Source: Polyangiales bacterium
GTDB taxonomy: Bacteria > Myxococcota_A > Polyangia > Polyangiales > Ga0077539
Direction of reading: 5' to 3'
Assembly (NCBI GenBank): GCA_044229975.1
Contig: JBGARZ010000013.1
Span: 204,781-268,780 of the forward strand
Length of the DNA: 64,000 nucleotides
The position numbers and the translations under genes were made by a program. This document shows positions 30,941 through 63,045 of this stretch, one piece after another (position 1 is the stretch's first letter; each line of letters starts with the position of its first letter). The notes below the pieces were generated by a model. That model made no database searches. It was not told the DNA's origin and was given only the letters and a program-made list of their open reading frames with translations.

Positions 30941-31012
30941 GCGGGCGTAATTCAGCGGTAGAATGTCAGCTTCCCAAGCTGAACGTCGCCGGTTCGATCC
31001 CGGTCGCCCGCT
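30941..31012 (+). tRNA. tRNA-Gly (anticodon CCC)
   Basis: Acceptor stem GCGGGCG/CGCCCGC, anticodon arm TCAGC-TTCCCAA-GCTGA, T-loop GGTTCGATCCC; followed by CCG, so no encoded CCA. Confidence 0.97.
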
Positions 31013-31026
31013 CCGAAGATTCCTCT

Positions 31027-32337
31027 CTACTTTCGGCCCGTTGCGAGCTTAGCTCCAGCGGGCCGATCTTGGTTCTGGGGGTTCTTCACACCCCGCTTCA
31101 CACCCCGACGGCCGTCGGGGCGAGCCATCGCCTCGCGCGCCCCGGCGAGGTCGACCACCTTCGCCAAGCCCGCGCGCTGCTCGGCCTCGGCGGGGCTGCT
31201 GTAGTGCTCCTGCATCGCCTCGGTGTGGTGCCCCGAGATCGACCGCGTGACCACGTTGGTGATCTCGGCGGCGCGCGCCAGGTCCTGGAACGTCCGCCGC
31301 ATCGCGCGCGGCGTGATCTTCTTCCTCAGCCCCAGCGCCTTGTGGACGGCGGCGAAGGGCTTGGCCAGCACCGACGCGGCGCGGAACTTCCCCTGGCGCG
31401 ACGGGAAGAGCAGTTCGCTCTCCTCCATCTTGCCCTCGGGCAGTTCGTCGGCGTGGCGGCGCAGGATGTCGACCAGCTCCTTCGGCACCGCGATGCGCTG
31501 CCGGTTGCCGGTCTTGGTGGTGTTCATCACCTCGTCGGTGCGGGTGTGCGAGCGGCGAACCAGCAGCACCCCCTCGTCCCACAGGACGTCGGCGTTGGGG
31601 CCCTGGCGGCGCAAGGCCCGCAACGACGAGGGCCTGAGCCCCGTCGCGAGGCCCAACACCACCATGGCGAAGTGCTGCGGGTAGAGCTCGTTCATCTTCT
31701 TGAGGAACGCCCGCCCCTCCTCCACGGTGAGCGCGTTGGGCTCCTCGTGGGTGTAGGCCGGGTGCTCCGAGGTGTCGAAGGGCTCGACCCCGGCGATGGG
31801 GTTCCGCTCCAGCTCGAACTCGTGCACCGCGGCGTTGAGGATCGACCGCAGCGCGCTGAACCAACTGTTGGCCGTGTGCGGGCTCAACGTGTCGGCCTTG
31901 ATCCGCTTGGCGACGTCCGCCTTCCAGGCGATCACGTCCGCCCGGCGGATCGCGTCGACCTGGAGCCGGCCGAAGGTCGGGAAGAGGTGCTTCCTCATCA
32001 CCGACGCGAACACCACGCGGCTGTGGGCGCCCTTCATGGTGCCGTCAGCGATCTTTCGTTCCATGAGCGAGACGCTGTAGACGCTGAAGGACGGCAGGGT
32101 CTGCACCTGCGTCCCCTGCCGGAGGCGCTGCTGCTCGTCCTCCAACCACGCCCGCGCTTCGAGGGCCGTGGCCACGTCGAGCGCCTTGAGGATCTGGTGC
32201 TGCTTGCCGGTGCGCGGGTCGGTCACCTTCCCGCGCACGACGAAGCCCAGGCTTTCCTCCCTCTTCCACACGCCGGGCAGCACCGGCTTCGCGCTGATCT
32301 TGAACCGCCATCGAGTCACCCACTTCGTTGCAGTCAT
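31027..32337 (-). CDS. int: Tyrosine recombinase (integrase)
   Basis: TGLRPSS (R), TKT (K), RAMRRT (H-x-x-R variant), SGH and EHY (H, Y); start MTATKW. Confidence 0.92.
   Translation of the reverse strand: MTATKWVTRWRFKISAKPVLPGVWKREESLGFVVRGKVTDPRTGKQHQILKALDVATALEARAWLEDEQQRLRQGTQVQTLPSFSVYSVSLMERKIADGTMKGAHSRVVFASVMRKHLFPTFGRLQVDAIRRADVIAWKADVAKRIKADTLSPHTANSWFSALRSILNAAVHEFELERNPIAGVEPFDTSEHPAYTHEEPNALTVEEGRAFLKKMNELYPQHFAMVVLGLATGLRPSSLRALRRQGPNADVLWDEGVLLVRRSHTRTDEVMNTTKTGNRQRIAVPKELVDILRRHADELPEGKMEESELLFPSRQGKFRAASVLAKPFAAVHKALGLRKKITPRAMRRTFQDLARAAEITNVVTRSISGHHTEAMQEHYSSPAEAEQRAGLAKVVDLAGAREAMARPDGRRGVKRGVKNPQNQDRPAGAKLATGRK
31084..31107. repeat. 12-bp tandem direct repeat, candidate integrase arm-type sites
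   Basis: CTTCACACCCCG twice, about 70 bp from the tRNA 3' end. Confidence 0.6.
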
Positions 32338-36776: not shown

Positions 36777-36796
36777 GCGCCCACCTCCCAGCCCGA

Positions 36797-36922: not shown

Positions 36923-36966
36923 CCTTCCCGCTCGCCAGCGCCCCTTCCACCAAAGGAACCCTCACG

Positions 36967-38411: not shown

Positions 38412-38522
38412 CCAACCGCCTCGCTCGCTGCCCCGCCGCCGACCCGACTTCGGGGCGATGCCGGGTGCGCGGGCGCTCTCTCTTCCCCCAACGCTCACCC
38501 CAACCATCGTCACGAGGAACCC

Positions 38523-40115: not shown

Positions 40116-40176
40116 GCAGTGGGCATGGCGTGGAGCACAGCCTCGCGACAGTGACAGGAGCACATGAACGAGTTAT

Positions 40177-46090: not shown

Positions 46091-48326
46091 AGACGCCTCC
46101 CCTCCACCGGTGGACCATCACTCCGTGACCGGAGTCTTCACCAACAACAACCACTGGAACACAGCCTCCACCCCACGCGCGTAGGCCTCGTCGGACACGT
46201 CCTCCGGCAGCCCCCCCAGCGCCCGCTTCACGCGCGCCCGCACCTTGTCCCGGAGTTGCTGGTGGAGCTTCCAGTCGAGGGACATCACCTTCGCGACCTC
46301 GCCCGGCAGCGCCTTCGCCACAGCGGTGAGCGCCTCCTTGGGCGCGTCGCCCACGGCCCGCGCGAGGACGTCGCGGAACGCCAACTCATGCTCCGAGAGG
46401 CCCTCGCGCTCGGCGCGCGTCGACTCCGTCTTCAGCGTGCCGAGCAGCTTCACCAACTCCGCGAAGAAGGCCTCGGCGTTGTCGATGCCCTCGTTGTACC
46501 GCGCCACCAGCGCCTCGAAGCGCGCCTGGAGCTCGTCCCGCGTCGGGTTCGCCTGGAGGAGGTTGTTGAGCGCCCGCCGCACGACGGTCTGGAGGCTCAT
46601 CGCGCTGGCGTTGGGCGTCTTCTGCTGCTGCGCGATCGCGTTCGCCAGGCCGTCCACGTCCAGGCGGCGCAGGTCGAGCGGCGCGCGTTCGTAACCCGGC
46701 GACCAGCCCTCGGTCACGCGGTGGACGACCACCGACTCGGCCAACATCGCCCGCACGCGGTCGACGTACTCGCTCACGTCGGGGCGGTCGATGGTGGCCC
46801 GGATGTAGCCCGCCACGTCTGTCAGGAACCCGTGCCGGAGCGCGAAGGGCTTCACCACGTCGTCGAGCACCATCGCCGAGAAGATCCGGTCGACGAGGTT
46901 CACCTGGGCCAGGAAGTTCCGCCGCCGATCGTCCGGGTGGATCAGCGCCTCCTTGGCTGCGTTGCGCAGCGCGAGCCGGTCGGCGAGCGAGACGTTCGGC
47001 GGCTCGCGTGGGTCGACGCCCGCGTCGCGCACCATGGTCTCGGCCGCGTCGATGGACCGCGCGAGCGCCGCGATCAGCGCCTTACGGGGTTGCACCGGGG
47101 TCGCGCCCGCCGGGGCGCCGGGCCGGTTGGCGTAGATCGACAGCGCGCTCCGCAGGTCATGGAACACCCCCGCGTAGTCGACGATCATCCCGCACGCCTT
47201 GCCCGCGTCGACGCGGTTGGCGCGCGCGATGGTCTGCATGAGCGTGTGGTTGCGCATCGGCTTGTCGAGGTAGATGACGTCGCAGCTCGGCACGTCGAAG
47301 CCCGTCATCCACATGCCGCAGACGAACACGATCCGCAGCGGGTGTTTCGGGTCCTTGAAGCAGGCGTCCAGGGCCGGCGGCTCGTTGATCCGCTTGCGGA
47401 TGGGCACGATGTCCAGGGGGAAGCCCTGGAGGTTCGTGGTCGTGACCTTGTGGTTCTTGAAGTCGTCGACCTCGCCCTGCGACTCCGAGATCACCGGCGC
47501 CATCTCGGTCGCGCGCATCCAGGCGATGAGCTCGGCCAGGTCGTCCCGGCGCGTGGACCCCTCGGGCAGCGCCGCGTGCTCGGCCTCCAGCGCCACGAGC
47601 CGGGCGTCCCAGTGGCGCTTCACTCGCACCGACATTTCGACGGCGGTGAAGCGGTCGATCGAGACCACCATCGCCTTGCCGCGCGAGGTGCGCGACGTGT
47701 AGTGCTCGACCAGATCGCGGGCGACCTCGTCGAGCCGCGCGTCGTCCGTGATGAGGCTGTAGAGCTTCGCAAGCTCGCGCCGCAGCACCCGCGCCTCGTC
47801 GGGGTCGAGCGTCGCAGCCTCCAGCATCTTGTAGACGCGCTCGCCCAGCTCGGCGTCGGCGAGCTCGATGCGGGGCAGGCGGTTCTCGTAGTAGAGCGGA
47901 ACCGTGGCCTCGTCGGCGATCGCCTCCTCGAAGGGGTAGATCGAGAGGTAGTCGCCGAACTTGACCTTCGTCTCCCCGTCGGCGGACTTCGACGGCCCGT
48001 GAGCCCTGTCCACGTCGACCAGCGGCGTGCCCGTGAAGGCGAGGTAGCGCGCGTTGGGGAGGGCGTCGCGCATGTTGCTCGCGAAGGTGTCGTACTGCGA
48101 GCGGTGCGCCTCATCGGCCATCACGACCACGTCGTCGCGGGTCGAGAGCGTGGGGTAGGTGGTGCCCTTCACCTCGGTCGAGAACTTCTGGATGAGCGTA
48201 AACACGTAGCGCTGGTCACCTCGGAGCAGCTCGCGCAGGTGGTCGCGCCCCTGGGCCTGCACGAGCACCTTACGCCCCTGCTTCGCGTCGGGCGCCCGCA
48301 CGGCCCCGGCCGACACGAAAGTCTTA

Positions 48327-49661
48327 GGGCGTCGCAGTTTTCTCGTCGGGGTGCTGGTGCGTTCAGTGCGCTCCGTCGCCCCGCACGGCCTTCGGCGCGC
48401 AGAGGATCTCCACGAACCACGCTTCCAAGCCCGCGAGACGCTGGACCTGCGCCTCGACTTTCGCCATCGCCGCACGCGTGAGCGAGATCCCCTTGGCGTA
48501 CGTCGTGGTGACCAGTTGCACGACGGGCGCGACCCCTTTCCAGGTCATGGTCTGAGCGAAGTTCACGACCGTCTCCACGGTGTCCAAGATGCTCCCATTC
48601 CAGTGCTGTTCGAGGACGCCCCAGCAGCGCTCCACGGGGTTGTACTTGCTGTGGTACGGCGGGTAGTAGGCGAGGCGTACGTTGATCCGATGGGCCTGCG
48701 CAAAGGCCACGATCCGCGACAGAAACTGTGTGCGACGGCTCTGGTTTTCGGGCCCGTTGTCCTGAAGCAAAAGGAGCGTATCGACCTCCGGAAAGCGCGC
48801 CCGGTGAGCGCACCACCACGCCTCGATCCGATCGACGATGAAGTCCGCCGTGACGGGCCCCGTCGCCAGAGACACCGTCAGCTCGTTGTGGGCTGTGAGC
48901 AGGATGCCGTACGGCGTCACCTTCGCCTCGGCCCCGTGGTCGTGATCGAGCGCAAACACCAGCACGCGACTGACGCCGTACCGAGAGAACTCCCCCACCT
49001 TGATGACGGCCTTGGCGTCCATCGACAGTTCCAGCACGTTGGGCGAACGCGCGGCCGTCGCCCGCTCACGACTCATCTGTTCGAAGATGGCGTCCGTCGC
49101 GGCGACCTTTTTTTCGGCTTGGTCTTGGCCACGGCGCGCAGCCCATATCCCAGGTCGTTGAGCTTGACGCGGATCGTCTCCTCACACGGCAACTCCTCGT
49201 CCGTGTACCCCTTCTGCGCGATGAGTTGCCGACGGACTTCGGCCGACGTGATGCGTGTGTAGAGCCGCTGCGTTTGAAAGCGCGGATCGGTCTGACTCTG
49301 ACCATCGACGAGGTCGCGCAGATCCCGCATCAGGTTCGGCAGTCGCGATTGCGCCGTCGGACGTCCGCCGCCGGAGCGACCGTCGAGGCACTCGATCCCG
49401 GAGCGCAGCTCGTTCTTGCCTTTGCGCAACGTCCGCTCGTCCCAGTCGAGCGCGCGAACGGCTCGGTTCATCACGCCGTCGAACAGGTCGCGCACCGTCC
49501 GCGCCATGAACCGCCGACGTTCGCTGCCCTTCAAGGCGGCGGCCGTCTCCTTCAACACCTTCGTCACGTTGGTCGCGAGTTGCATGCCCGACTGCCTGGG
49601 AGCTCTGGCGAGCGCTGGACACCCTACGCCCGTTCAGCCCGAGCACTTTGCTGCGGCGCCC
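48327..49661 (-). mobile_element. ISAzo13-family insertion sequence, 1335 bp
   Basis: Terminal inverted repeats GGGCG(T/C)CGCAG; TTA duplicated at 48324-48326 and 49662-49664. Confidence 0.92.
48363..49585 (-). CDS. ISAzo13-family DDE transposase in two ORFs joined by a -1 frameshift
   Basis: SQTDPRF, SMDAKA, DNGPEN, YYPPYHSKYNPVERCW; A7 run at 49108-49114 gives KPKK-VAATDAIF after -1 slip. Confidence 0.9.
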
Positions 49662-50709
49662 TTATAGATCTGGTCGTCGAGGTCGTCGCGATCGGTGATC
49701 ACCACGAAGGTCCAGTTGCCCGGCACCTTCCGCAGCGCCTTCTGCGAGAAGAACACCATCGAGTAGCTCTTGCCCGAGCCCTGCGTGTGCCAGAAGACGC
49801 CGAGGGGCGTACCCTTGGACGGCGCCCCCACTCGGCGCGACGGGGCTTGGGTCTTCGATCGGCGTAGCGCCTCGACGGCGTTGTTCACGCCGAGGAACTG
49901 GTGGTTCTGCGCGACGATCTTCGCGAGGCCGCCGGGCACCTCCACGAAGAGCGTGAAGTTCTCGATCAGGTCGAGCATCCGCGCCGGGTCGCAGACGGCG
50001 CGCAGGAGGGTCGCCTGCCCGGGTGCCGGTGGCTCATCCTCGCGGGCGACGCGCTTCCAGGGCTTGAAGTGCTCCCAGCCGCTGGTGAGCGTTCCCAGGC
50101 GCGCATCGCTCCCCTGCGCGAACATCACGAGCGCGTTGAAGAGGAAGAGGCGCGGGATGGTCACGCGGTAGTCGGTGAAGTTCTCGTCGAAGGCCGCGCG
50201 CAGCGGGACGTCGGGAGACTTGAGCTCTACGAAGAGCAGCGGCAGACCGTTGACGAAGCCCACGAGGTCCGCCCGGCGGGTGTACACGTCGCCCCGCAGC
50301 TCGAACTCGCGCACGGCCACGTAGCTGTTGCGCGCAGGCGTGTCCCAGTCGATCACGCGCACCCGCACCGTTTCGGTGCCGCTGTCGTCGGTCTTCACCT
50401 CCACCGGCACGCCGTCGCGCAGGAGCGCGTAGAGTTCCTGGTTGGCGCGTTCGAGCGAGAGTGCGCTGCGGTCGCGCAGGAGCTCGTTGAGCGCGGCCTC
50501 ACGCGCCCCTGCGGGGACCGTGGGGTTCAGCACCTCGACCGCCTCGCGCAGTCGTCGCGGGAGCACGTGCTCGGTGTTGCTGCCCCGGCCGTAGGTCGAC
50601 ACCGCCCCACCGAAGGTCTCCTTGAAGCCGTTGTCGACGGTCCAGTGGAGCGCTTCGAGCTGCCCTTGGAAGACTGTGGCGACCGCCTGCTCCTTAAGGT
50701 TCGCGGAGG

Positions 50710-51945
50710 TCATGCGAGTTCCTTCTTGCGACGCCCGTGACGCGGCGAGTTGGCGGATGGCAAGTCGGGTGGTGTGTCGTCAACGGCCTCAGGGGGCGGC
50801 AGCGGCAACCGCGAGACGTCAACCTCGCCCGATAGCAACTTGGGAAGGAGAAACCCGCGTAGCTTTCGGAGGGTCGCATTGCGAGTCCCAAGGGACTGCA
50901 ATAGGGCGATGCAGGGTTCCAAGATCTCGTTGAGTGCGAGACGCTCGCTCTCGGTGCCGAGCGGAACTGCATACGTTGCCATGTCTTCCCACCGCGCACG
51001 CGGCATCTTCGACCCATTCGCTTTATTGCTGATTTCGGCAACGAAGTCATCGCTCGACGCGCACATCAACACGGCCAAGCGATCTAGCGCGCTGCGCGCG
51101 CGCATTACAATCGCGTCCGCAGAGGTTACGCCATCGAAAGCTACCGGGCCGACTTTGTGAAAGTAGGGCCGGATCTTCCCAAACAGGAGATCGCCAGCTT
51201 CGAACGGAATCTTCGAACTCACCACGTCCCGCGTGTATCCATGATCGGAGAGGTCGAACGATCGCCGGGGAATGTGTTCCAACCCGATATAGCGCGTATC
51301 GCTGTCGATTTCGGCAGGACTGACCTGCATCCGCACAAGATGCACGAGATCACCCAAAGGAGCCGTGACACGTCTTGCGTCGCGGGCCCATCGCGACCAA
51401 TAGAGACGTGCCACATCTTCAGACATATGAACGCGGCGAAGATTGTTCTCAATGAGGCGCGAGATCCCATCGAGGAAGCCTGCGACGCGCCGCTGTGTTG
51501 GGAGATCTGGCACTCTGAGCGGAACCCGACGGAGTTCGCTCTGTTTGATGCCAGCCACCGTTGTGCCGGTAGCGCGTTTGCGTAGTTCGCCCTGAACCTG
51601 CGGACCCTGGAGCAGGTGATAGAGATATGAGGGATCGATTACGGAGGACTTCGCTCGAAGCAGGATCACGCGTTGGGCAAGCGCCACCCTCGGATCGTCG
51701 ACGCGAGCTACCTGTCCCAGTGGCGCTTCGGTCGTGATGAGAACGTCTCGTTCGCGCGGAAGTCCACGACGCATCCACGTGTCGTAGTCATCTTCTGCAA
51801 TGTACTCATTTTCCGCCTGAAGAACGAAGCCGTCTTTGATGACTTTGGCTGTCACGAGCAGCACGCCGGCATTCGACTTCTCGGGCGTCTTGCCTCGATA
51901 GTCAATCAGCACTTCAACAGCCTCTTCGAGTTCAACCGTCCGCAT
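50710..51945 (-). CDS. hsdS: Type I R-M specificity subunit S
   Basis: DYRGKTP, VPDLPTQRRVA..L, GDLLFGKIRPYF, LRKLRGFLLPKLLSGEV; two-TRD layout. Confidence 0.93.
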   Translation of the reverse strand: MRTVELEEAVEVLIDYRGKTPEKSNAGVLLVTAKVIKDGFVLQAENEYIAEDDYDTWMRRGLPRERDVLITTEAPLGQVARVDDPRVALAQRVILLRAKSSVIDPSYLYHLLQGPQVQGELRKRATGTTVAGIKQSELRRVPLRVPDLPTQRRVAGFLDGISRLIENNLRRVHMSEDVARLYWSRWARDARRVTAPLGDLVHLVRMQVSPAEIDSDTRYIGLEHIPRRSFDLSDHGYTRDVVSSKIPFEAGDLLFGKIRPYFHKVGPVAFDGVTSADAIVMRARSALDRLAVLMCASSDDFVAEISNKANGSKMPRARWEDMATYAVPLGTESERLALNEILEPCIALLQSLGTRNATLRKLRGFLLPKLLSGEVDVSRLPLPPPEAVDDTPPDLPSANSPRHGRRKKELA

Positions 51946-53491
51946 GAGTCGGCTCCAGAAGAAGACGCATCGCCTCACTCACGGTCGCTTCCTGTACATG
52001 AGCCTCCGCCGTAAGGGTCTCGAACTCCTCTTGCAACTCCATCAACCGTTCCTCGAAGTCGACCTCGTCGGCGTCGGTCTTCGCGCCTACGCCCACGTAG
52101 CGGCCAGGATTGAGGCTCCAGCGGTTCTCCTCAATGACCTTGCGCGAGACCTTCTTGCAGAGTCCTTCCACGTCGCTGTACGCCGTGCCTATACGCTCCC
52201 TTGTCAACGCCAACCCGCCATGCCGGTTCTCGACCCCCTTACCTCTCCACAACCTCACAATGTTCGCCAGAAACTCCACTTGCGCGGGGGTAATGTTTCG
52301 ATGCGCTCGGTCCACCTGTTCGAAGACCTCACGGGCGTCAATGAATAGCACTTCGTCGGCGCGTGGCCCCTTTGCTTTTGCCCGATCGAAGAACCATAGC
52401 GTTACCGGCAGCGTGACCGTATAAAAGAGGTTGGTCGAGAGCGAGACGATCACGTCCACGGCGCCGCTCTTCACGAGATCGCGACGCACTTCGAGGTCGC
52501 GACCACCCGCGTCGCTGGCGCTGTTGGCCATGACAAAGCCTGCGCGACCGCCTGGGTTGAGGGCACTATAGAAGCGCTGGATCCACAGGTAGTTGGCCTT
52601 ATCGCCCGATGTCATGCCCCAGGGGTAGTGGACGCGGTCGTCCTTCAAGCGCGCCTTATCGACGCCCTTGAGGTTGAAGGGCGGGTTTGACATCACGAAG
52701 TCGAAGCCCTCCTTCACGTCCTTCTCAACCGGGAACTCGTAGAGCGAGGAGACTACCTGGCGGATGGACCCCTGAAGCCCGTGAATGGCGAGGTTCATTC
52801 GGCAGAGCTGGATGGTCTGGGCCATCTTCTCCTGGCCGAACACGCTGAGCCCCTTGCCCTTGTGTTCAGCCACGAAGCGCGCGCTCTGCACAAACATCCC
52901 GCCTGAGCCGCACGCGGGGTCGAAGATGCGCCCCTCAAAGGGTTCGAGGATCTCGACGATGAGCCGCACCACTGAGAACGGTGTGAAGTACTCGCCGCCC
53001 TTCTCCAGGGTGTTCGGCGCGAGGGCGCCCAGGAAGTACTCGTAGACCCGGCCGTAGACGTCCCCCTCGGGCGACTCTTCGAGCACGTTGAAAGCCTTGA
53101 GCAGGTCGCGCAGGATCTTCTTGTCGATCTTCGCGTAGTCCTTCGGGAGCACGCCCTTGAGGGCGTCGTTGTCTTCCTCGATGGCGCGCATCGCGTCGTT
53201 GAGGACCTTCCCCAGCTCGGCGCCGTCGGGGAGGTCCAGGAGCGCGCCCCAACGGTGCTCGGGGCGGAGGTACACGGCCCCTTCGGCGCGGTAGTCCTCG
53301 GGCTCGGGGGCGCCACGCCGACGACCCGCCTTGAGCTTCGCGTGGGCCTTCGCGAACCCCTCGTCGGCGTACTTCAAGAACAACAGCGCGAGCACCGGGA
53401 GCTGGTACTCCGTCGGCTTGAGCGCGGTGCCGGCCCATAGGGCGTTGGCGGCCTTCCAGAGCGTCGACTCGAAATCCTTGGGCAGGGGCAT
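51932..53491 (-). CDS. hsdM: Type I R-M methyltransferase subunit M (m6A)
   Basis: LWKAANAL, GEYFTP, FDPACGSGG, NPPF, SLNPGRYVG. Confidence 0.96.
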   Translation of the reverse strand: MPLPKDFESTLWKAANALWAGTALKPTEYQLPVLALLFLKYADEGFAKAHAKLKAGRRRGAPEPEDYRAEGAVYLRPEHRWGALLDLPDGAELGKVLNDAMRAIEEDNDALKGVLPKDYAKIDKKILRDLLKAFNVLEESPEGDVYGRVYEYFLGALAPNTLEKGGEYFTPFSVVRLIVEILEPFEGRIFDPACGSGGMFVQSARFVAEHKGKGLSVFGQEKMAQTIQLCRMNLAIHGLQGSIRQVVSSLYEFPVEKDVKEGFDFVMSNPPFNLKGVDKARLKDDRVHYPWGMTSGDKANYLWIQRFYSALNPGGRAGFVMANSASDAGGRDLEVRRDLVKSGAVDVIVSLSTNLFYTVTLPVTLWFFDRAKAKGPRADEVLFIDAREVFEQVDRAHRNITPAQVEFLANIVRLWRGKGVENRHGGLALTRERIGTAYSDVEGLCKKVSRKVIEENRWSLNPGRYVGVGAKTDADEVDFEERLMELQEEFETLTAEAHVQEATVSEAMRLLLEPTHADG

Positions 53492-53495
53492 GGGC

Positions 53496-56282
53496 TCAGT
53501 TCTCGGAGGAGCGGTGCGGGCAGAAGGAGCGGAAGTCGCAGTGGGTGCACTGGACGCCGGGGGTCGCGTCGAAGCGCCCGTCGCGCAGGTCGCTGGCGGC
53601 GGAGTTCAGTGCCTGGAGTGACCCCGCGACGGCCGCGTCGCCCAGATCAACCGGGTGGCGCGCGGTGCCCTTGGCGGCGGTGAGGTCGTGCAGGTACGCG
53701 GCGCGGACGGTGAGCCCCTCACGGCGCGCGGCTGCCGCGTAGACCTGGAGCTGCGCAGCCGCTTCGTCGTCCGCCTGCACGGGGCGGGTCTTGTAGTCGA
53801 GGATCGCGAGCTGGCCGACAACCCCACCCTCGCGATCGAGGATCACGTCAGCGCGCCCCTCGACGTCGGCGGACTCCAGGTGGAGAGCGAGCGGGCGCTC
53901 GACGGCCCAGTGGCGCGCGAGGTCATCGCGCCAGTCGGTGAAGCAGGTCTTCACCACCCGCCGTGCGCGTCGTTCGAGGGCGTCGTAGGCCGCCTGGTCG
54001 GCGTGCGGCAGGTAGAACTCCTCCGCGAGCAGGGCGTCGACCGCTTCAGGCACCGGGTCGGCCCCGCTGGCGCGCACGAGTTCCACCAGACGCCGCAGGA
54101 GGTGGTGCACCGCGCGCCCGTAGCCCGCCTCGCGTACCACCGGCGAGGCGAAGCCCAGCCGCGACGCGAGCCAGTAGCGGTGCGGGCAGGCGACGTAGGC
54201 AGCAAGCGCGCTGTAGGAGAGCGACGGCCGCTCGTCGGCCGCCTGCGGTGTGTGCGGGGCGGCGTCGGGCAGCGGCAGCGGATCATCGCTCACGGTGATC
54301 GAGCCCGGCAGCAAGCCCTGGAGGAGCGGCGAGGCCTTGACCTTGTCCCCGTCCTCGTCGCGCTGGTGAAGCGAGAGGTACAGGTGGTCCCGCGCGCGGG
54401 TGATCGCGACATAGAACAGCCGCCGCTCGTCGTCGTCGGAGCCCTCGTACCGCTCGGCCGGGAAGCGATCGCGCGGGAGGAGCCACGTCCCTCTCCGCCC
54501 GGTCATCTTCGAGGGGAAGACGTTGAGGTTGAGGCACGGCACGAACACCACCGGCCACTGGAGCCCCTTGGCGCCGTGCACGGTGCTAACGGTCACCGCC
54601 GGAGCGGCCGCGTCGAGGTCGCCGGCGAAGTCCTCGTAGGCGGACTGCGCGTAGAACGAGAGGTAGTCGCTGAGGGCGCGCAGGAAGGCCGGGCCCCCGG
54701 CGTGTCCCGCACCGAAGGAGACCACGCCGTCGGTGGCCTGCGTCCACGCGCGGCGCGTGACGGACTCGAAGTCGGCCAGGATCTGGCTGAAGCGGGCGAG
54801 CACACCGAGCCGGTCGGTGGCTTCACCGCCCGCCCAGGTCGACGCACCGAGCGAGGCGAGCAGGCGGTAGAAGTGCCCCACGAGGTCGGCGGCCCCCTCG
54901 TGGGGGAGCCGCGTGCGGAGGCTCAGCAGGTCGGCGCGCAGCCGCTGGCTCTCCTCCGCCGAGCGCCCGAAGGCGGACGCGAGCCGCCCGAGGAGTTCGT
55001 CGAGGGCGATGGACACCTCGCGGCGGGCGCGCGCCCGGTAGAAGGTGTCGCGGCCACAGAGCCACGCGAAGAGGTCCCCCAGCACCTCGGCCTCCGGCTG
55101 GAGGAACAGGCCCTCTCGCCCGGAGCAGCGCCACGGGATCGACGCCTCCGTGAGGGCGGCCAGGAAGGGGGCGGCGTCGTTCTTCGTCGAGCGGAGGAGG
55201 ATCGCCACGTCCGCCGGACTCGCGCCGCGATCGAGCAGCGCGCGGATCGCCTTGGCCACGCGGGCCGCCTCGTGCGCCGGGTCGCGCGCGCCCGAGAGGT
55301 GCACCGCGTGGGGGCCGTCGCCCCGCGCAGCGGTGATGACCTTGGGCAGTCGCCCGCCGATGGTCTCGGCGAAGCGACCCGCGAGGGCGACGATGGGCGC
55401 CACCGAGCGGCGGTTGACGCCGAGGGTCTCGCGCACGGCGCCCGTCTCCTGCTGGAACGTCTGGAGGTAGGCCACCGACGACCCGCGCCACTGGTAGATG
55501 GCCTGGTCGTCGTCGCCCACCACGCAGAGCGAGACGGGGCCGCTGCCGAGCCGTCGGATGAGGCGCGCCTGGGCGGGGTTGATGTCCTGGAACTCGTCGA
55601 CCACCAGGTGGCGTAGCTGCGCGTGCACGGCGGCGAGCACCGGGTCGCGCCCGAGCTCGCGGAGGGCCAGCGCGACGCACTGGGCGTGGGTGAGCACGTG
55701 GTAGCGGTCGAGCAGCGCCAGGTACCGCTCGTAGATCTCGCGGAACGTGCCCGGCGGGAGGTCTTCTAGTGAGAGGCCCTCGTTCTCCACCACGTCGATG
55801 CTGCGCAGGAAGGAGCGCACGGCCTGGACCCTGAGCTTCTGGCCGAGCGCGTCGAGTCCGAGCGCGTCGTACTCCCGGAGCAGGAGGCCGATCACGCGGT
55901 GGGCGTCGTACAGGTCGAAGGTCGCGAAGCGCGGCGCGTGGTCTTGCAGGAAGCGCATGCACCAGGCGTGGATGGTGCCGACGAACATGGGCGCGAGGCG
56001 TTCGAGTGCGAACCCCGGCATGCGCTCAGCGGCGCGGCGCAGGATGCGGGCGCGCAGCTCGGCGGCGGCGGCGCGGGTGAAGGTGAACGCGAGGATGCCG
56101 ACGGGCGCGACGCCGTCGGAGAGCAGCACCGCGACCCGCTGCGCCACCGTCTCGGTCTTGCCCGAACCCGCGCAGGCGACGACCTGGAGGTGACCTCCCC
56201 GGTGCTCGATGATCGCGCGCTGCTCGGCCGAGTAGGCGACGGTGGGGGTGCCAGGTGTCTGTGGTGTCCCGGCGTCGTCCAT
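53496..56282 (-). CDS. UvrD/Rep SF1A helicase fused to a C-terminal PD-(D/E)xK nuclease with a Cys cluster
   Basis: ACAGSGKT, VDEFQD, GDDDQAIYQWRG, TVHGAKGLQW, ERRLFYVAITRA; ACP...GRAD...ILDYKT...CTHCDFRSFC. Confidence 0.92.
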   Translation of the reverse strand: MDDAGTPQTPGTPTVAYSAEQRAIIEHRGGHLQVVACAGSGKTETVAQRVAVLLSDGVAPVGILAFTFTRAAAAELRARILRRAAERMPGFALERLAPMFVGTIHAWCMRFLQDHAPRFATFDLYDAHRVIGLLLREYDALGLDALGQKLRVQAVRSFLRSIDVVENEGLSLEDLPPGTFREIYERYLALLDRYHVLTHAQCVALALRELGRDPVLAAVHAQLRHLVVDEFQDINPAQARLIRRLGSGPVSLCVVGDDDQAIYQWRGSSVAYLQTFQQETGAVRETLGVNRRSVAPIVALAGRFAETIGGRLPKVITAARGDGPHAVHLSGARDPAHEAARVAKAIRALLDRGASPADVAILLRSTKNDAAPFLAALTEASIPWRCSGREGLFLQPEAEVLGDLFAWLCGRDTFYRARARREVSIALDELLGRLASAFGRSAEESQRLRADLLSLRTRLPHEGAADLVGHFYRLLASLGASTWAGGEATDRLGVLARFSQILADFESVTRRAWTQATDGVVSFGAGHAGGPAFLRALSDYLSFYAQSAYEDFAGDLDAAAPAVTVSTVHGAKGLQWPVVFVPCLNLNVFPSKMTGRRGTWLLPRDRFPAERYEGSDDDERRLFYVAITRARDHLYLSLHQRDEDGDKVKASPLLQGLLPGSITVSDDPLPLPDAAPHTPQAADERPSLSYSALAAYVACPHRYWLASRLGFASPVVREAGYGRAVHHLLRRLVELVRASGADPVPEAVDALLAEEFYLPHADQAAYDALERRARRVVKTCFTDWRDDLARHWAVERPLALHLESADVEGRADVILDREGGVVGQLAILDYKTRPVQADDEAAAQLQVYAAAARREGLTVRAAYLHDLTAAKGTARHPVDLGDAAVAGSLQALNSAASDLRDGRFDATPGVQCTHCDFRSFCPHRSSEN

Positions 56283-56491
56283 CGTCCCCTCCATCCCGTG
56301 CTCCTGCGCGATCGAGCCGGCCTGCGGCGTGCCGAGGATCGCCGCGCGATCATCGACCCGTCAACGACCATCGACGCGAGCGGACCGGGCCCAGCGCACC
56401 CTTCGCCGGTCGGCACCGATCGCTGAGCCACCCGGAGACGATCCCTCTCGATCCTTCCAATTTCCGATCGCTAAGGCCGATACTTTGCGCG

Positions 56492-59400
56492 ATGACATCC
56501 GACCAGGACCTGAAGTTGCGCGGAAAGCATCCGGGCCCGGATGAGGTGCGCGCGGCCGTCACCGGAATACTTGCGGCCGTCGCCGCCACGCGAGAGCTCG
56601 ACCAGGCGAACGAGGCGACGACGAGAGTCGGGTTGGTCGACAAGCTGCTGGACGCGATGGGTTGGCCCTTTGGCGAAATCAAGCGCGAGCAACCGTCTGG
56701 AACGGGCCTTTTCCTGGACTACGAGTTGCGGGTCCGCGGAGAGCCTTGGATGGTCGTTGAGGCGAAGCGTACCGAGAGAACCTTTCGCTTGGCGCGCCCC
56801 ACCGCATCGGGGCGCGCGACGCCGCTGAGAAGCCTCCAGAGCCTCCTCACCTCCGGCGGGCAACCCCTACGCGAGGTTTTGAATCAAGCCGCCGGATACT
56901 GCAACGATCGTGGCATCCCCCTCGCGGCGGTGACAAACGGCACGCAGTGGGTGTTCTTCAGGGGCCTATCCGCCCGACATCGCCAGTGGATGGACGGCGT
57001 TGCGATCGCGTTCGACCGCGCCGATTTAGTCGAGGCATCCGGTGAGTTCTTCGGGTGCCTTTCCAGAAGCTGCGCTGGAACTCCCTATCTCCCCGACCTC
57101 CTCGACCGGGTCACGCATGTGGACCCACCTGCCGCGCATGTTCCCCGCGACCACATCGAACTCCGACGACCGACGATCGACCCCCACACCGCCGCCGTCC
57201 TCGGCTCCGTCTGCGACTACCTGCTCGCCGACATCTACGGGTCCAACCGTCAAGCGATGCTGAAGCAGTGCTACATCGAGCCGGGCGTCAAGGGGGAGTT
57301 CGAGCGCAGCATCGAGCGCCTCCTGCGAGACACCGCCAATCCGATCACGCTGCTCGATAGCCAAAGGGACGATGGCCCCAAGCGAGCGGCCGACGATCGA
57401 AAGGGCGAGGAATCGAATCTGCTCGACGGCGACAGTCGCGACTTTGTCGAGCACGTCACCCTCCTCGACCGAACGACCGAGATTCAAAACCCCGTCGTCG
57501 TCGTCGGTCACGTCGGAGCCGGCAAGACCACCTTCCTGCATCGCTCGCTATCTCACTTCGAGCCGAACAAGGGGGCCAAAGGCAACAACGAGGCCTTCTA
57601 CGCTCTCGTCGACTTGGAGGGCCACGGCGAGGGAGGCGCCGTGGAGGCCAATCAGGAGGAGCAAAAGGTCGCGGAGGACATTCTGCGAGGGCTAAAGTAC
57701 TCCGCGCAGGAGGCCGTGCGCAGCCGTAAGGCAGGCCGCTCCGACGCTGGTGAGACCAACCTCGAACGGCTTCTCGAACGCACCGACCCCTACTCCCTCG
57801 CGACACTCCAAAGCCTCTTCGGCGGGCGTCTGAAGAACGATAGGAAACTGGGGGAGAAGGTGTGGGCGAAGGACCCCGGCGCGTGGGATCGCAAGGAGTA
57901 CGAGATCCTTTCTGAGGCCAAGAAGGATGCTGTCGATCTGCTTGTGCGCTTCGTCAAGCACCTCCGGGAGCACTTCCACCGCGCCGACAAACGAAGGTAC
58001 CCCGTCCTGATCGTACTGGACAACCTGGACCAGGCGACGGACGACTACCAACGCTGTATCTACGGGCTGGCGCGCCAGTTGGCGCGTCGAACCCACGCCA
58101 TCATCGTCGTGTGTCTTCGCGAGGACACGTACAATTCGGGGTTGGGACCCAACGGCTTTCTTGCCTCAAGCAACCTCCAGTTCGTGTTTCACGTGAAGGC
58201 GCCTCCGCTCGACCATGTCGTTCGGCAGCGGGCGAAATTCGGGAAGCAAGCCGTCGAGTCGGGCAAGCTCCCCACGGCCCTCGCGGTCGAGTCCGACGCA
58301 TTGATCGGCGTGTGTGACCTTCTCGGGGACGTGTTCTTGACGCCCAAATCGGAAGCGATCGAGTTGGCGTCATCCGTTTCTGGTCACAACATCCGCGAAG
58401 CCCTCGGGATCGTTCGATCGGTGGTCGCCGGCCGCCCCTCCATCGCCGGTGAGGCCAAGAGCAGTGCCGCATTCGCGCTCGATTGCATTCTCGCCACGCG
58501 CAGCCAAGAGTCCGTCCGGAATCTGCTGGGCCCCGGCAACTGCCTGGACGCGGACCCATGGAACCCTCCATGTCACGCCCTGCGTGTCCGGATGCTGGCA
58601 TACCTATCGTGGTCCTTCGAATCGAACAACGATCGCGTTCTGCACGAGATGACGGACCTGATTCTGGCGCGCTTCTCGTCGTGGGGATACCCGCTCGGGC
58701 TTGTGAAAATGGCCGTGGCCTCTCTGCTCGCGGCCCGGTTGATCCGTCCCCGCACCAAGGCGGATTTCTCCCCACTCCGAGCCCCCTACACGTTGCCTCA
58801 GGGGCTGTCACTCACCGCATCGGGCAGGGTGCACCTCACCCGGCTCGTGAACCTCCCCGTGTACCGGGCGGCCACCGCCCTGAGGGTCAGGTGGTACGAC
58901 AAGGAATTCTTTACGGAGTTCGTGCGTGCCGCCCAGGCCGCTGGCGGGGATGAGGGTCCCAGTGTCGCGGACATCGCCGCGTCGAAGGCCCTCGACATCT
59001 TTGACTCCTACCTTGCCGTCGCGGTCGGACGCGAGGACGGGTACCTAGGTTTGAGCGCAGCCAAGCCGCAGTGGCTTTCGGAAGTGATATCCCGATCGGC
59101 GCAGGTGCTGCCATCCACGGATCTTCTGCAAGCGAAGGCCACGATCGTTCCCCCTCCCCGCCCCTCACGCCGTGCGAAGTCCAAAGACGTCGACAAGCAA
59201 CTCCCGCTCTTCGAGGAGACTGGACAGCCCCCGTCGTCATTAGGGAAGCTCCTGGCAGACGCCTCCTTTGGAGGCGACCCCTGGGTCGTCAGGGTCTTGT
59301 GGGCGCTTGAGTGGGGACGAGAGCGCGGCACACCGGCCATGTTGGAATCTGACATCTGGCGAACGCTCAACGAGCACACTTCGCTGCGATTCGAGCAGGC

Positions 59401-59530
59401 GGACCTCGAACGCGCGCTGCGCTCGCTCAATCGGAACACCACCGATTCTCTGTGGTCCCTCTCGAAGAAGCGCTACCAGATCACCCCTGCGGGCAGCCTC
59501 CTCGTCACGGCTTTGGCGCGGCCCGAGTAG
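56492..59530 (+). CDS. HsdR_N-like restriction-endonuclease domain fused to a P-loop ATPase and a C-terminal winged helix
   Basis: NEATTR...LDY...VVEAKR...QAAGYC...AVTNG.QW; Walker A GHVGAGKTT; Walker B LIVLDNLD; terminal YQITPAG. Confidence 0.8.
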   Translation: MTSDQDLKLRGKHPGPDEVRAAVTGILAAVAATRELDQANEATTRVGLVDKLLDAMGWPFGEIKREQPSGTGLFLDYELRVRGEPWMVVEAKRTERTFRLARPTASGRATPLRSLQSLLTSGGQPLREVLNQAAGYCNDRGIPLAAVTNGTQWVFFRGLSARHRQWMDGVAIAFDRADLVEASGEFFGCLSRSCAGTPYLPDLLDRVTHVDPPAAHVPRDHIELRRPTIDPHTAAVLGSVCDYLLADIYGSNRQAMLKQCYIEPGVKGEFERSIERLLRDTANPITLLDSQRDDGPKRAADDRKGEESNLLDGDSRDFVEHVTLLDRTTEIQNPVVVVGHVGAGKTTFLHRSLSHFEPNKGAKGNNEAFYALVDLEGHGEGGAVEANQEEQKVAEDILRGLKYSAQEAVRSRKAGRSDAGETNLERLLERTDPYSLATLQSLFGGRLKNDRKLGEKVWAKDPGAWDRKEYEILSEAKKDAVDLLVRFVKHLREHFHRADKRRYPVLIVLDNLDQATDDYQRCIYGLARQLARRTHAIIVVCLREDTYNSGLGPNGFLASSNLQFVFHVKAPPLDHVVRQRAKFGKQAVESGKLPTALAVESDALIGVCDLLGDVFLTPKSEAIELASSVSGHNIREALGIVRSVVAGRPSIAGEAKSSAAFALDCILATRSQESVRNLLGPGNCLDADPWNPPCHALRVRMLAYLSWSFESNNDRVLHEMTDLILARFSSWGYPLGLVKMAVASLLAARLIRPRTKADFSPLRAPYTLPQGLSLTASGRVHLTRLVNLPVYRAATALRVRWYDKEFFTEFVRAAQAAGGDEGPSVADIAASKALDIFDSYLAVAVGREDGYLGLSAAKPQWLSEVISRSAQVLPSTDLLQAKATIVPPPRPSRRAKSKDVDKQLPLFEETGQPPSSLGKLLADASFGGDPWVVRVLWALEWGRERGTPAMLESDIWRTLNEHTSLRFEQADLERALRSLNRNTTDSLWSLSKKRYQITPAGSLLVTALARPE

Positions 59531-59636
59531 TGCCGTCGTTCCTGCCTCACTTCACCCCGGGTCGCCGAGCACCTCGACGGGCTCCGTGACCGCTTCGGAG
59601 TGGTCCGACTCTTGACCGCCGTTCGCAGGTCGTGTT

Positions 59637-60122
59637 GTGGTCATCCGCATGAGCGGGGAGAAGATCATCATGGGTGCGTTGGAGATCGTAGGCCGTCCGC
59701 TCACGGAAGTGCTCGATCGCCTTCTGTCGACCGCGAGTCGCAATGAGTTCATCCTCGTGGTGTCGAACAACGCGCGACACCCGATGCGGCGGTCAGAGAC
59801 CTTCAACGACTCGGACCACTGGCCGTTCGACGACGTGCCGCCAGGGGCCACGGCGACCGTTGCCCTTCAGCGCAAGAACTTCTCTTTCGCTGCGAAGTAC
59901 GCGCTCGGGGATTCCGGCCGCGCGGTCATCCTGGCGGGTTCCAGCCCGTTCTTGGGCACCGAGAAGATCGATATCGAGCCCTCCGGCAGCCGCGTCACCT
60001 GCAAAGACGTCTGGGAGAGAATGGACGACGGTCACGACAAGGGAAGCGCTCAGGCGAGGGCCTACATCAAGTCGGGTAAGGCGCCGGGAAGCCGGGCCTG
60101 GGTTTGGGACATCGGCCCTTAG
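59637..60122 (+). CDS. Hypothetical protein
   Basis: ORF co-oriented with and directly after the nuclease-ATPase; no motif recognised. Confidence 0.5.
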   Translation: MVIRMSGEKIIMGALEIVGRPLTEVLDRLLSTASRNEFILVVSNNARHPMRRSETFNDSDHWPFDDVPPGATATVALQRKNFSFAAKYALGDSGRAVILAGSSPFLGTEKIDIEPSGSRVTCKDVWERMDDGHDKGSAQARAYIKSGKAPGSRAWVWDIGP

Positions 60123-60306
60123 AACGGCTCTCGGCTGAGGTTGGTACTGGCTTGCCCGGCCGCAGATCGGGGCGGAAACTTCCAGCAGGAGGCGTCCCAC
60201 GGCCTCATACAGTATGGATCTCCGCGAGCGCGTGGTCGCCGCGCACCGAGCCGGCGAGGGCTCGATCCGCGAGCTGGCCGACGTGTTCTATGTGGCCAAC
60301 AGTACC
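60120..60306 (+). pseudogene. IS630-family transposase 5' remnant
   Basis: SYSMDLRERVVAA...G.GSIRELADVF.VANST HTH; possible end TAGAACGGCTCTC. Confidence 0.65.
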
Positions 60307-60344
60307 CGGTGCGTTATGCCCATGGACATCTCGCACCGGGTACG

Positions 60345-60550
60345 CGGAGTTCGCGGCGCTGCTCATCGAGATCGTCCGGCACATTCCACTGGCGACGGCC
60401 GAGAAGGCGAAGCGTGGACCGAAGAAGCCCGTTCCGAAGCGCACGCGCTCCGAGTACACCCCTCACGTCTCGACCAAGAAGCTCCCCGATCGAGGCAACT
60501 CATGACGAGGCGTGGAGGCGCTCATCCAACCGACGTTGACAGGGATAGAC
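60345..60550 (+). pseudogene. IS4-family transposase 3' remnant
   Basis: EFAALLIEI...KAKRGPKKPVPKRT...PHVSTKKL; possible end TTGACAGGG. Confidence 0.6.
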
Positions 60551-60562
60551 GCAGGTGACCGA

Positions 60563-61387
60563 TCACTTGTCTGACGGGGGGGTCTTCGTCTTGCTGTCGG
60601 AGTGATTAGAGTTCAAGACGTCTCGCGTCGCGTTCTTCTCACGGTCTTTGATGAATGATTTGAGTTTCTCCGCCCGGCCGGGGTGGCGCACCTTGCGGAG
60701 GGCCTTGTCCTTGATCTCGGCCATGCGTTCCGATGAAACCTCAAAACGTTCGGCAACTTCGTCGAGGGTCGGCTCGGATCCTCTCGGAAAGCCAAATCGC
60801 ATCCGCAGAACTTGTTCTTCGCGCGAGGTCAACGTCTTCAGGACCTTCCGCAGTTGCTCCCACTGAACGTCTGCCAGCATCGAATCGAGTGGTGAGAGCG
60901 CCTCCGCCGGAAGGTCGTCCAGCGCCTCGGAGTCATGCAGATTGTCCTGCGGATCCCGGGTCGCTTCGAGGATGGATCGGACCGCTTCCGGTGGCACCTC
61001 CAACTTCTCGGCGATCTCCTCCGGTGTCGGCTCTCGATGAAACTCGTCTCGAAGGTATCCTGCGATGCGCCGGATATCGCGTCCCTGCTTAACCAGATGC
61101 TCCGGAACATGGACGACCCTGGCGCCATTCTTGACGGCCCGTTCGATCTTCCAGCGGATCTGCCGCCCCGCATAGTGCGAGAAGGGAGCACCCTGTTCCG
61201 GCTCGTAGGTGCCACTGGCGTTCCAGAGGCCGATCTCCCCCTCCTGCAACAGGTCCTCCCACGGCAGGCCACGGCCCCGAAAATCCGCAGCAACCTCCAC
61301 CACGAGCGCGCGGTGCTGAGCGAACAGTGCGATCCGCCTTGCTCTGGTCTCGCCGTCCGTCGTCCGATCCGTAGGTCTGTCAGTCAT
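60563..61387 (-). CDS. RpoD-derived sigma70-family factor (regions 2-4, 274 aa) with altered DNA-contact residues
   Basis: RGL..EDLLQEGEIGL, REPTPEEIAEKL, TLTSREEQVLRMRFG, KALRKVRHP; GGAGAGG RBS before MTDRP. Confidence 0.88.
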   Translation of the reverse strand: MTDRPTDRTTDGETRARRIALFAQHRALVVEVAADFRGRGLPWEDLLQEGEIGLWNASGTYEPEQGAPFSHYAGRQIRWKIERAVKNGARVVHVPEHLVKQGRDIRRIAGYLRDEFHREPTPEEIAEKLEVPPEAVRSILEATRDPQDNLHDSEALDDLPAEALSPLDSMLADVQWEQLRKVLKTLTSREEQVLRMRFGFPRGSEPTLDEVAERFEVSSERMAEIKDKALRKVRHPGRAEKLKSFIKDREKNATRDVLNSNHSDSKTKTPPSDK

Positions 61388-61730
61388 TGACCACCTCTCC
61401 TCCGCTGACCAGGAAGCCGGGACCAGGGGTCGTCCCGCGATTGGAGGTACCCTGCCATAGAGGGCTGGTGCGCGGCCAGCCTTCTCGACGACAGCTAGCC
61501 ACGAGCCGTCGGTCATCGCGGTGCCTGTCCACCAGTGGGTGGCGCCGCAGGTCTGACCTCGGGTGAACAGGTGTGGAGTGTCCAGCGACGCAAGCAGATC
61601 GGGTCCCGATGCGTGCTGGGTCTTCAATGCTATTGGGATCGATGAGCTGAGAGAAGCACACTGCTATGGGTCGGGTGCCCGGCGAGCATACGCCGTATTG
61701 CGCCTGTCCGGACCTGCCTACCCTTGGTCC

Positions 61731-62210
61731 ATGACGAATCTCGCCGAGATCCATCACCACCGCTTGGCATTCACCCCCGAGCGCGAGCCCCCGGCCGCCG
61801 CGTCCGACGCGAACCGCCTCAGCGTGCTGGAGACCACCCCGCTGACGGTGGGGATCCCCGACCTGGGCGGCGTGCGCCCCATGCTCGACCAGGTGGAGCA
61901 CTGGGCCAGCGAACTCCTCGATCCGGCGACCCGCGACAACCAGCGGATGCGTCTGCTCTCCCGCATGATCGCCGCGCAACGAGCGAAGCTCGCGCTCCGG
62001 GAGACCCAACGCGAGCAGGCGCTGCTGGCGGGCGAGTTCGGGGCCGCGCTCGTGGTCGACAAGATCGTGCAAGGCGACGCGCGCCGACTGGCCGCGCTCA
62101 TCCGCGAGCACCGCCACGAATGCCTGGGCGAGCACCGCGCCGTGACGGTCTCCGTCGTCGCGGCCGGGGATCGCCCGCAGGTGAACGTCCTCGCCAGCGC
62201 GGGACGGTGA
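61731..62210 (+). CDS. Hypothetical helical protein
   Basis: GC3-rich ORF from MTNLAEI. Confidence 0.6.
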   Translation: MTNLAEIHHHRLAFTPEREPPAAASDANRLSVLETTPLTVGIPDLGGVRPMLDQVEHWASELLDPATRDNQRMRLLSRMIAAQRAKLALRETQREQALLAGEFGAALVVDKIVQGDARRLAALIREHRHECLGEHRAVTVSVVAAGDRPQVNVLASAGR

Positions 62211-62214
62211 CGCC

Positions 62215-62589
62215 GTGACCTACCGCGACGCGGTGCCGCGCGTGTCCATCGCGCAGGTGCGGGGGCAGTTCAGGCCGAGGGTGTTCCGGGCGATGGCGTC
62301 GGTGCGGCTGGCGCTCGCGGGCGCGGTGAGCGAGGTGCTCGTCGTCCACGCACCGGGCACCGGAGCGGTAGGTGCCCGGCGCCCCTGGTTCCTTTGCCCG
62401 CGATGCGCGCGCAGGGTCAACGTGGTCGGCGTGGCGCCAGGGGGCGGATGGGCGTGCGGAAAGTGCGTGGGGTGGCGTTCGAGGAACGCCCCGGCCCGGA
62501 CGGGCGCGTGCGTCGACGCCACCGCCGGGACGCTCGGCCCCGCGGAGGGAGGGGTCAGTCCGGCGCTTGGTGTGGGGGAGGTTCGATGA
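62215..62589 (+). CDS. Zinc-ribbon protein of a type seen in mobile elements
   Basis: GARRPWFLCPRC.RRV...WACGKC. Confidence 0.65.
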   Translation: MTYRDAVPRVSIAQVRGQFRPRVFRAMASVRLALAGAVSEVLVVHAPGTGAVGARRPWFLCPRCARRVNVVGVAPGGGWACGKCVGWRSRNAPARTGACVDATAGTLGPAEGGVSPALGVGEVR

Positions 62590-62941
62590 CGTTCGTCGGT
62601 GGCGCGGTCACGTTCATGGTCAGCGTCAGGGTCGTGCTGCGGGTGACGACCACGACCCTCATCATCCCCGGCGGCACCGGCGCGGCCACGAACGCGCGCC
62701 ACTCGGGGTGCTTCATCTTCCGAAGGAGGGCCTCGCAGGGCTCGATGGTCACCACCGGTCGGCCCGTGGCCGCCGCGATCTCCGGCTCGACGGCGACGAC
62801 CACGAACTCGTCGGGGCTGAGGCCCTTCGCGGCGAGGACGGGTTGGAAGGCGATCATCACGTCCCGCGCGTGGTCGAGGATGACCGCGTGGTCGTGCAGC
62901 GCGGCGGGCGGGGCGTTCATGTCGACGATTGCGTCGGGCAT
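62555..62941 (-). CDS. Hypothetical protein
   Basis: AGGAG RBS before MPDAIVD; GC3-rich codons. Confidence 0.6.
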   Translation of the reverse strand: MPDAIVDMNAPPAALHDHAVILDHARDVMIAFQPVLAAKGLSPDEFVVVAVEPEIAAATGRPVVTIEPCEALLRKMKHPEWRAFVAAPVPPGMMRVVVVTRSTTLTLTMNVTAPPTNVIEPPPHQAPD

Positions 62942-63045
62942 CGAGAGTCTCCTGCTGGGGGTTCGACGAGAAGGGTAGGGCGGTGCGCCGGATGGCGCGG
63001 CAGGGCGGTTCGCGCGCGACGGCTTCCCCGAGCGCGACGCGTCCC

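Follow-up and report, generated by a model that had tools for sequence, protein, structure and literature searches.

An RpoD-like sigma factor of an integrative element with a rewritten, apparently constrained -10 face: a candidate alternative sigma of new specificity

We have analyzed a stretch of 64,000 nucleotides (hereafter the window) from a Polyangiales bacterium, in which a sigma70-family gene lies within an integrative element (Table 1). The reading frame of this gene translates without a stop into 274 residues (P0001), with Pfam models of sigma regions 2, 3 and 4 scoring above their cut-offs (PF04542 and PF04545 for sigma2 and sigma4), neither region 1.1 nor region 1.2 present by Pfam, and a variable tail of 28 residues at the C-terminus. 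In the window, the frame remains open for another 80 codons 5' of the ATG; since an in-frame stop is found 7 codons before the ATG in the contig of its homologue (L027, described below), the start chosen in the first-pass annotation of this DNA stands, with both the start and the ribosome-binding site conserved between the two loci. A structure model built from an 87-sequence alignment yielded a mean pLDDT of 77, with all helical domains predicted mostly at 80-93 and a disordered linker, and folding of the single sequence was poor (pLDDT 48). Foldseek returned SigA/RpoD chains as best matches throughout, at a low global TM because the placement of the domains in the model is unsettled. The best NCBIfam models were also those of RpoD, all far under cut-off (e.g. 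168 vs. 354 bits). As judged from its sequence, P0001 is an intact sigma70-family protein, real and under selection.

Table 1. Features of the sigma gene and of the element around it (coordinates are those of the window).
Feature	Coordinates	Strand	Basis or remark
tRNA-Gly(CCC), left end of element	30941..31016	+	3' 47 bp repeated on contig C15 (206579-206625)
Tyrosine integrase of element	31027..32337	-	Pfam
Cargo block beside sigma	46118..59530	.	Type I restriction-modification, UvrD-PDDEXK helicase-nuclease, large P-loop ATPase
Sigma70-family gene, 274 aa (P0001), regions 2, 3, 4	60563..61387	-	Pfam, homologue comparison
Recognition helix of region 4.2, without R584 and R588	60704..60736	-	Varies between the two copies
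Shortened region 3.2 (sigma finger)	60893..60958	-	Shorter than RpoD by 7 residues; evolves fast
Rewritten region 2.3-2.4, residues 69-83	61139..61183	-	Protein identical in both copies
Region 2.2 core-binding segment DLLQEG	61238..61255	-	D403, Q406 and E407 retained
Purine-rich ribosome-binding site 5' of sigma ATG	61393..61403	-	Identical in homologue P0002
Divergent two-gene module	61731..62589	+	Present in related sigma-less elements

The element comprises window positions 31015-64000 together with G000:C22:2950-5472 and C15:206626-212213, ~41 kb in all across a presumed contig join. Its probable continuation runs via an IS66-like repeat onto contig C15, where the 47-bp repeat of the tRNA gene is likely its right end and where a D5-type primase-helicase lies near its far end. 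The element proteins scanned included no relaxase, conjugation or virion protein, and the element resembles a satellite or a mobilisable island. Its backbone operon (35242-39641) encodes a DUF932 protein, a beta-clamp homologue and a sigma54 activator with a short N-terminus only, the latter having dozens of related paralogues in the genome. In the cargo, hsdR is split by an ISAzo13-family element (48363-49585) with several near-identical copies in the genome. Directly 3' of the sigma gene (60214-60505) are short remnants that we take to resemble a transposase family, with only a weak HTH match in Pfam. The sigma gene itself is located between the defence-type cargo and the divergent two-gene module, for which Pfam, PADLOC and the Atlas gave no match (the neighbouring gene at 61731 had none in Pfam or PADLOC, and another small gene none in Pfam). 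This module was found in 6 of 30 family genomes, with a sigma orthologue in none of the 6. The GC3 of the sigma gene is 0.73 (host rpoD, 0.94), as compared with 0.64-0.93 in six cargo genes and 0.91-0.97 in five backbone genes. Given the module relatives without sigma and a GC3 in the cargo range, the sigma probably belongs to the cargo instead of serving as a backbone regulator.

Among the matches listed, there was one full homologue, P0002, a protein of 274 residues with 85% amino acid identity that is encoded on the 1293-bp metagenome contig L027, making at least two full sigma sequences in total. A word-index search yielded 65 matches with P0002 as the one close match, and further word-index searches with sigma2 alone (2 of 73 candidates) and among shorter proteins (0 of 9) gave nothing beyond P0002; when 1.84 billion representatives were searched with a profile, the 150 top-ranking matches outside the cluster of the query were ordinary RpoD/SigA. 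No sigma orthologue was detected in 40 relatives, 8 genomes of the genus (searched as DNA), 30 genomes of the family or 400 of the order, and a scan of contigs returned 6 distant loci only from genomes and none from viruses. Among 213 retrieved sigma proteins, W-W-I is retained in 206, and P0002 alone shares the rewritten motif of P0001. Parts of the gene are also represented, at 97-99% identity, on short low-depth contigs in two runs of a single study; the 10 changed codons of these contigs consist of 5 synonymous ones, 3 that match P0002 and 2 (S188L and L208P) confined to a single contig of depth 3.5, which may be sequencing errors or a damaged allele.

The closest gene in its own 10-Mb genome is an intact rpoD of 621 residues (G000:C11:211456-213321), and E. 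coli numbering was assigned to P0001 through alignment with this host RpoD. Identity between the two is 45% over residues 28-246 and 64% in sigma4 (45 of 70 residues, vs. 39 for SigA, 34 for an RpoD paralogue and 8-27 for seven other alternative sigmas). This comparison bears out the first-pass annotation on three points, namely that the scaffold is close to that of a primary sigma factor, that the core-binding DLLQEG segment (residues 45-50) is kept in the absence of region 1, and that six promoter-contact residues are all changed, comprising W433R, W434Q, Q437W and T440E in region 2.3-2.4 (residues 69-83, FSHYAGRQIRWKIER) and R584S and R588A in the -35 helix (residues 218-228, SSERMAEIKDK). 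The T-7 pocket is also altered (N383H, L384R, R385A), as are R423Q, Y425A, R451H and E458K, while F427, S428, Y430, R436, R441, H455, E585, R586 and K593 are retained. Near the DLLQEG segment we noticed L402E, N409E and M413W. Core contacts in sigma have been described for the regions 402-413, 384, 387, 563, 565 and 598 (PMC8716302; bioRxiv 2020.09.07.285775). Using the list in PMC8716302, 11 of 20 core-contact positions are identical to host RpoD and 9 differ, including L384R, L402E, N409E and M413W; with lists that we compiled from the literature, 6 of 18 positions contacting the -10 element and 3 of 9 contacting the -35 element are identical. Regions 2.2 and 4.1, at 60% and 71% identity to host RpoD, are the best-kept parts. 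The sigma2 domain of P0001 has a net charge of -1 (0 in P0002), a value that ties for the lowest among 31 of the 54 host sigma2 domains found (most of the 31 carry +2 to +8), and this lost positive charge would argue for weak DNA binding.

Substitutions of the W-dyad have been described in working sigmas. The W433A change is reported to slow opening, with core binding and transcription persisting (PMC4593229), and the group 3 sigmas described in PMC10911233 all lack at least one melting residue and hence need stricter promoters. In E. coli sigma28 the dyad is QR, as compared with RQ in P0001, with dyad strength following the order WW > HW > QR (PMC10216364). The Pseudomonas sigma28 has I/R at the dyad, with A-11 stacking on the Y430 equivalent, the R436 equivalent being needed and the -7 base not flipped (PMC12784957). 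With Y430 and R436 kept and the W-dyad lost, P0001 presents the pattern of a working group 3 sigma28 on an RpoD scaffold.

The selection tests rest on a single pair, P0001 vs. P0002, which differ by a dS of 0.32 and a dN of 0.078 without any indel or stop, giving a dN/dS of 0.25 (95% bootstrap 0.16-0.38, P=5e-11); in neutral simulations, the sigma frame was kept open in 1 of 2000. The dN/dS amounts to 0.017 in residues 38-89 (regions 2.2-2.4; 14 synonymous changes and 1 non-synonymous), 0.16 in region 3.0-3.1 and 0.18 in region 4, and reaches 0.42 in region 4.2, 0.54 in the linker (residues 143-181) and 0.56 in the tail, none of the last three being distinguishable from 1. Counted by codons, there are 3 synonymous and 0 non-synonymous in residues 38-58 (region 2.2), 9 and 0 in residues 66-89, and 2 and 3 in the region 4.2 helix; region 4.1 also has 0 non-synonymous codons, and the adjoining region 2.1 takes 6. 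Region 2.3-2.4 is more constrained than the remaining gene (Fisher P=0.01). At the 21 positions within 414-446 that differ from host RpoD, we counted 1 non-synonymous change vs. 12.8 expected (P=7e-6), a deficit that rejects decay of the rewritten positions. The nine -35 helix positions yielded 3 vs. 5.6 expected (P=0.14), with S/P at position 584 and A/G at position 588 (P0001/P0002), and the direct contrast of the -35 helix with region 2.3-2.4 reached P=0.06 only. Within the reach of this one pair, these data show a new -10 face that appears fixed, with the changes in region 2 and region 4 differing in kind; the -35 substitutions, unshared between the copies, look like contact loss and not a new code. 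The first-pass expectation that homologues share the substitutions under purifying selection therefore holds for region 2.3-2.4 and fails for the -35 changes. Conversely, the signs of decay that it had named, i.e. substitutions unique to this copy and a dN/dS near 1, are at odds with the region 2.3-2.4 shared by P0002 and the whole-gene value of 0.25.

The first-pass annotation had also suggested an element-specific sigma serving private promoters, to be sought by motif discovery upstream of the island genes, and had named the sigma54 activator as the other possible handle of the island on host transcription; an element-specific role was not borne out. In 18 upstream regions, a spaced-dyad search gave nothing above control, the best motif being present in 9 of them and at least 9 also being reached in 7 of 30 controls (a low-power test), and, as described above, relatives of the flanking module occur without the sigma. 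A sigma70 promoter scan of 59500-64000 gave 0 sites. Likewise, a sigma54 scan found one site, within a coding region, and none in the non-coding DNA of the window's element part, and no tie to the activator, 22 kb away, was found. A 14-bp block conserved 5' of both sigma copies has 2 more near matches in the element vs. 0.7 expected (not significant). A near copy of this block (12/14) at L028:6975-6995 (G000:C15 near 206978), 5' of replication genes and inside an inverted repeat, is not significant vs. chance and offers a weak lead to a candidate target promoter.

The only enriched repeat was the palindrome TACG-S-CGTA, found at window positions 35161, 42965 and 61689 and at G000:C15:207025, with 4 of its 9 copies in the 10-Mb genome residing in non-coding DNA of this element. 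As similar palindromes are found 5' of the 61731 homologue in six related sigma-less loci, we have rejected the palindrome as the promoter of this sigma. The palindrome probably serves as the operator of a repressor encoded by the element or the host, for which the XRE gene at 39759-40163 is a candidate, and it may be a LexA-type box. At window positions 61719-61733, a TANNNT hexamer precedes the ATG of gene 61731 by 6 bases; related loci have a similar hexamer near the gene start, and this arrangement suggests a leaderless promoter of the host RpoD type for the two-gene module.

Based on the retained core-binding parts, the fixed -10 face and the drifting -35 helix, we surmise that P0001 is, on balance, probably a weak-melting alternative sigma, born from RpoD and relying mainly on a new -10 element, and that it likely steers host RNA polymerase to promoters that RpoD does not read. 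P0001 would bind core via region 2.2 and region 4.1, with a new -10 sequence being read by the fixed H429, R433, Q434, W437, K438 and E440 (E. coli numbering). Opening of DNA would be weak and would depend on the kept Y430 and R436, as in group 3 sigmas needing near-perfect promoters, and the -35 element would be read weakly or not at all, leaving specificity to the -10 region or to a helper protein. Its targets would likely be found among the cargo or host genes, few in number, rather than in the element backbone. Counting against this reading are the absence of a promoter motif above control in the 18 upstream regions, the net charge of sigma2, the short and variable sigma finger, the 9 altered core-contact positions and the contrast of only P=0.06 between the -35 helix and region 2.3-2.4. 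More tentatively, we speculate that P0001 may represent a new sigma class soon after its birth, in which an element captured the rpoD of the host lineage, dropped region 1, fixed a new -10 code and gave up reading of the -35 element, thereby arriving at an orthogonal holoenzyme that reads the -10 element only and is built on a housekeeping scaffold.

The choice put forward in the first-pass annotation was between new specificity and a decoy. A core decoy would bind core RNA polymerase and be incapable of opening promoters, thereby depressing transcription by the host or a phage and acting as an effector of dormancy or abortive infection, and we regard this as rather unlikely. Such a role might be read from the parts that are best kept, regions 2.2 and 4.1 with 0 non-synonymous codons, from the loss of the positive charge of sigma2, the -35 arginines, the T-7 pocket and E458, and from a location that adjoins defence-type cargo with no target motif found in the 18 upstream regions. 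However, a pure core decoy needs no fixed DNA-facing surface, and residues 66-89 have nevertheless accumulated only synonymous changes (9 vs. 0); in addition, Y430 and R436 are retained, functional group 3 sigmas exist without the same melting residues, and no cognate inhibitor gene was identified for a would-be toxic protein. New specificity is thus the favored half of that proposal, with the decoy being less likely.

The fixed surface of P0001 could also bind a protein instead of DNA, either as a bait for or sensor of a phage anti-sigma or in a sigma that recognizes promoters only with a helper, and to this reading we likewise assign a low probability. It would account for a constrained, non-basic sigma2 surface together with a drifting -35 helix, and there are precedents in the RpoD-like sigma that belongs to the MZA defence system (as seen in model matches) and in the dedicated sigma described as controlling a Myxococcus defence island (PMC11506125). 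Nonetheless, no conserved partner accompanies the sigma: homology with L027 ends a few bases past the sigma stop codon and the downstream genes differ between the two loci, a search of 301 genomes yielded no match to the downstream gene of the homologue, the upstream module is also found at loci lacking the sigma, and PADLOC gave no match to MzaB-E among 18 proteins scanned.

With respect to the origin of the sigma assumed in the preferred reading of an alternative sigma born from RpoD, descent of regions 3-4 from RpoD is well supported by similarity, and it seems likely that the donor belonged to the host lineage and that sigma2, too, came from RpoD. Among 10 sequences compared, host RpoD is the top scorer for residues 75-115, 109-146 and 176-246, and in a quick mixture-model tree P0001 and P0002 fall within the RpoDs of the order to which the host belongs, with moderate support (SH-aLRT 83-92) and a long branch of 2.7 changes per site. 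The pair could instead be a mosaic or an older alternative sigma, in which a sigma2 derived from group 2 or 3 was fused to regions 3-4 of an RpoD and the unusual residues were simply inherited, P0001 being an alternative sigma all the same; we consider this very unlikely. It is prompted by residues 21-90, in which three Lentisphaerota sigmas score 146-152 vs. 121 for host RpoD, and by a second tree that left the position of the pair open, with AU tests rejecting 0 of 3 alternative placements (host FliA-like sigma, p=0.49; C34 sigma, p=0.29; four SigA-type sequences, p=0.38). The Lentisphaerota sigmas, however, were picked by the shared motif, which biases their scores, and retain a W-W or C-W dyad, and the scores of the other segments and the mixture-model tree point to RpoD. 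Some same-order genomes (L048-L052) harbor extra RpoD paralogues with moderately long branches and a normal W-dyad, which could be raw material for such sigmas. Least probable of all is a decaying RpoD duplicate with no current function, a reading in keeping with the great rarity of the gene, its GC3 of 0.73 vs. 0.94 in host rpoD, the IS-like remnants directly 3' of it and the dN/dS of 0.4-0.6 in linker, tail and region 4.2, but one that the whole-gene dN/dS, the frame left intact over a dS of 0.32 and the conserved start and ribosome-binding site largely refute for the period after the two copies diverged.

Sigmas carried by mobile elements and alternative sigmas are familiar, most of them being members of old ECF or group 3 lineages. 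P0001 differs in that its scaffold is still 45-64% RpoD while the DNA-reading residues that are otherwise the most conserved have been replaced and held fixed, and we found no description of an RpoD-derived sigma with a recoded region 2.4 on an integrative element in the literature searched, which included few subscription papers. If active, P0001 would offer a direct test of recoding -10 specificity on a housekeeping scaffold and possibly an orthogonal sigma; a role as decoy or bait would represent an unusual mode of RNA polymerase control. A new class would allow the emergence of group 3-like sigmas from group 1 to be followed in a natural case, together with the residue code by which the -10 element is recognized. 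The significance is limited by rarity, with two full sequences among the matches listed.

Among known systems, P0001 resembles group 1 RpoD (TIGR02393, PRK05658) in its co-linear regions 2-4 and in keeping the region 2.2 core segment and the C-terminal helix. In contrast to RpoD, it is devoid of regions 1.1 and 1.2 as well as of the invariant W433/W434, Q437, R584 and R588 of group 1, T440 and E458 are changed, the finger is 7 residues shorter, the score is 168 bits vs. a cut-off of 354, and the gene resides on a mobile element in a host that also has an intact rpoD. Group 2 (RpoS-like) sigmas are described as keeping region 1.2 and group 1-like DNA-binding determinants (PMC4598750), neither of which is found in P0001. 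The architecture of sigma2, sigma3 and sigma4 without region 1 is that of group 3, and in the missing W-dyad and the kept Y430 and R436 equivalents P0001 resembles sigma28/FliA; unlike the FliA-, RpoH- and SigB-like sigmas of the host, its regions 3-4 are far closer to RpoD, and unlike group 3 it scores 103 bits vs. a cut-off of 234 with the SigBFG model and has an unstable -35 helix. As for descent from FliA, RpoH, SigB or sporulation sigmas, pairwise scores favor RpoD, with the trees being long-branched and AU tests rejecting nothing. Similar to MzaA of the MZA anti-phage system (NF041931, PDLC02203), P0001 is an RpoD-like sigma in a defence setting and matches the C-terminal third of that model; it differs from MzaA in covering only positions 487-716 of 726 at 164 bits vs. 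a cut-off of 800, with neither a full-length MzaA nor MzaB-E neighbours among the 18 proteins scanned. The best tblastn matches in phages and plasmids were ordinary RpoD at no more than 41%. Finally, the sigmas encoded by Bacillus phages are described as sporulation-like (bioRxiv 10.1101/2021.11.12.468384) and DdvS of Myxococcus as the ECF sigma of an island (PMC11506125); P0001 is like them in that a mobile element or island supplies its own sigma to redirect host RNA polymerase, and unlike them in that its sigma is RpoD-like.
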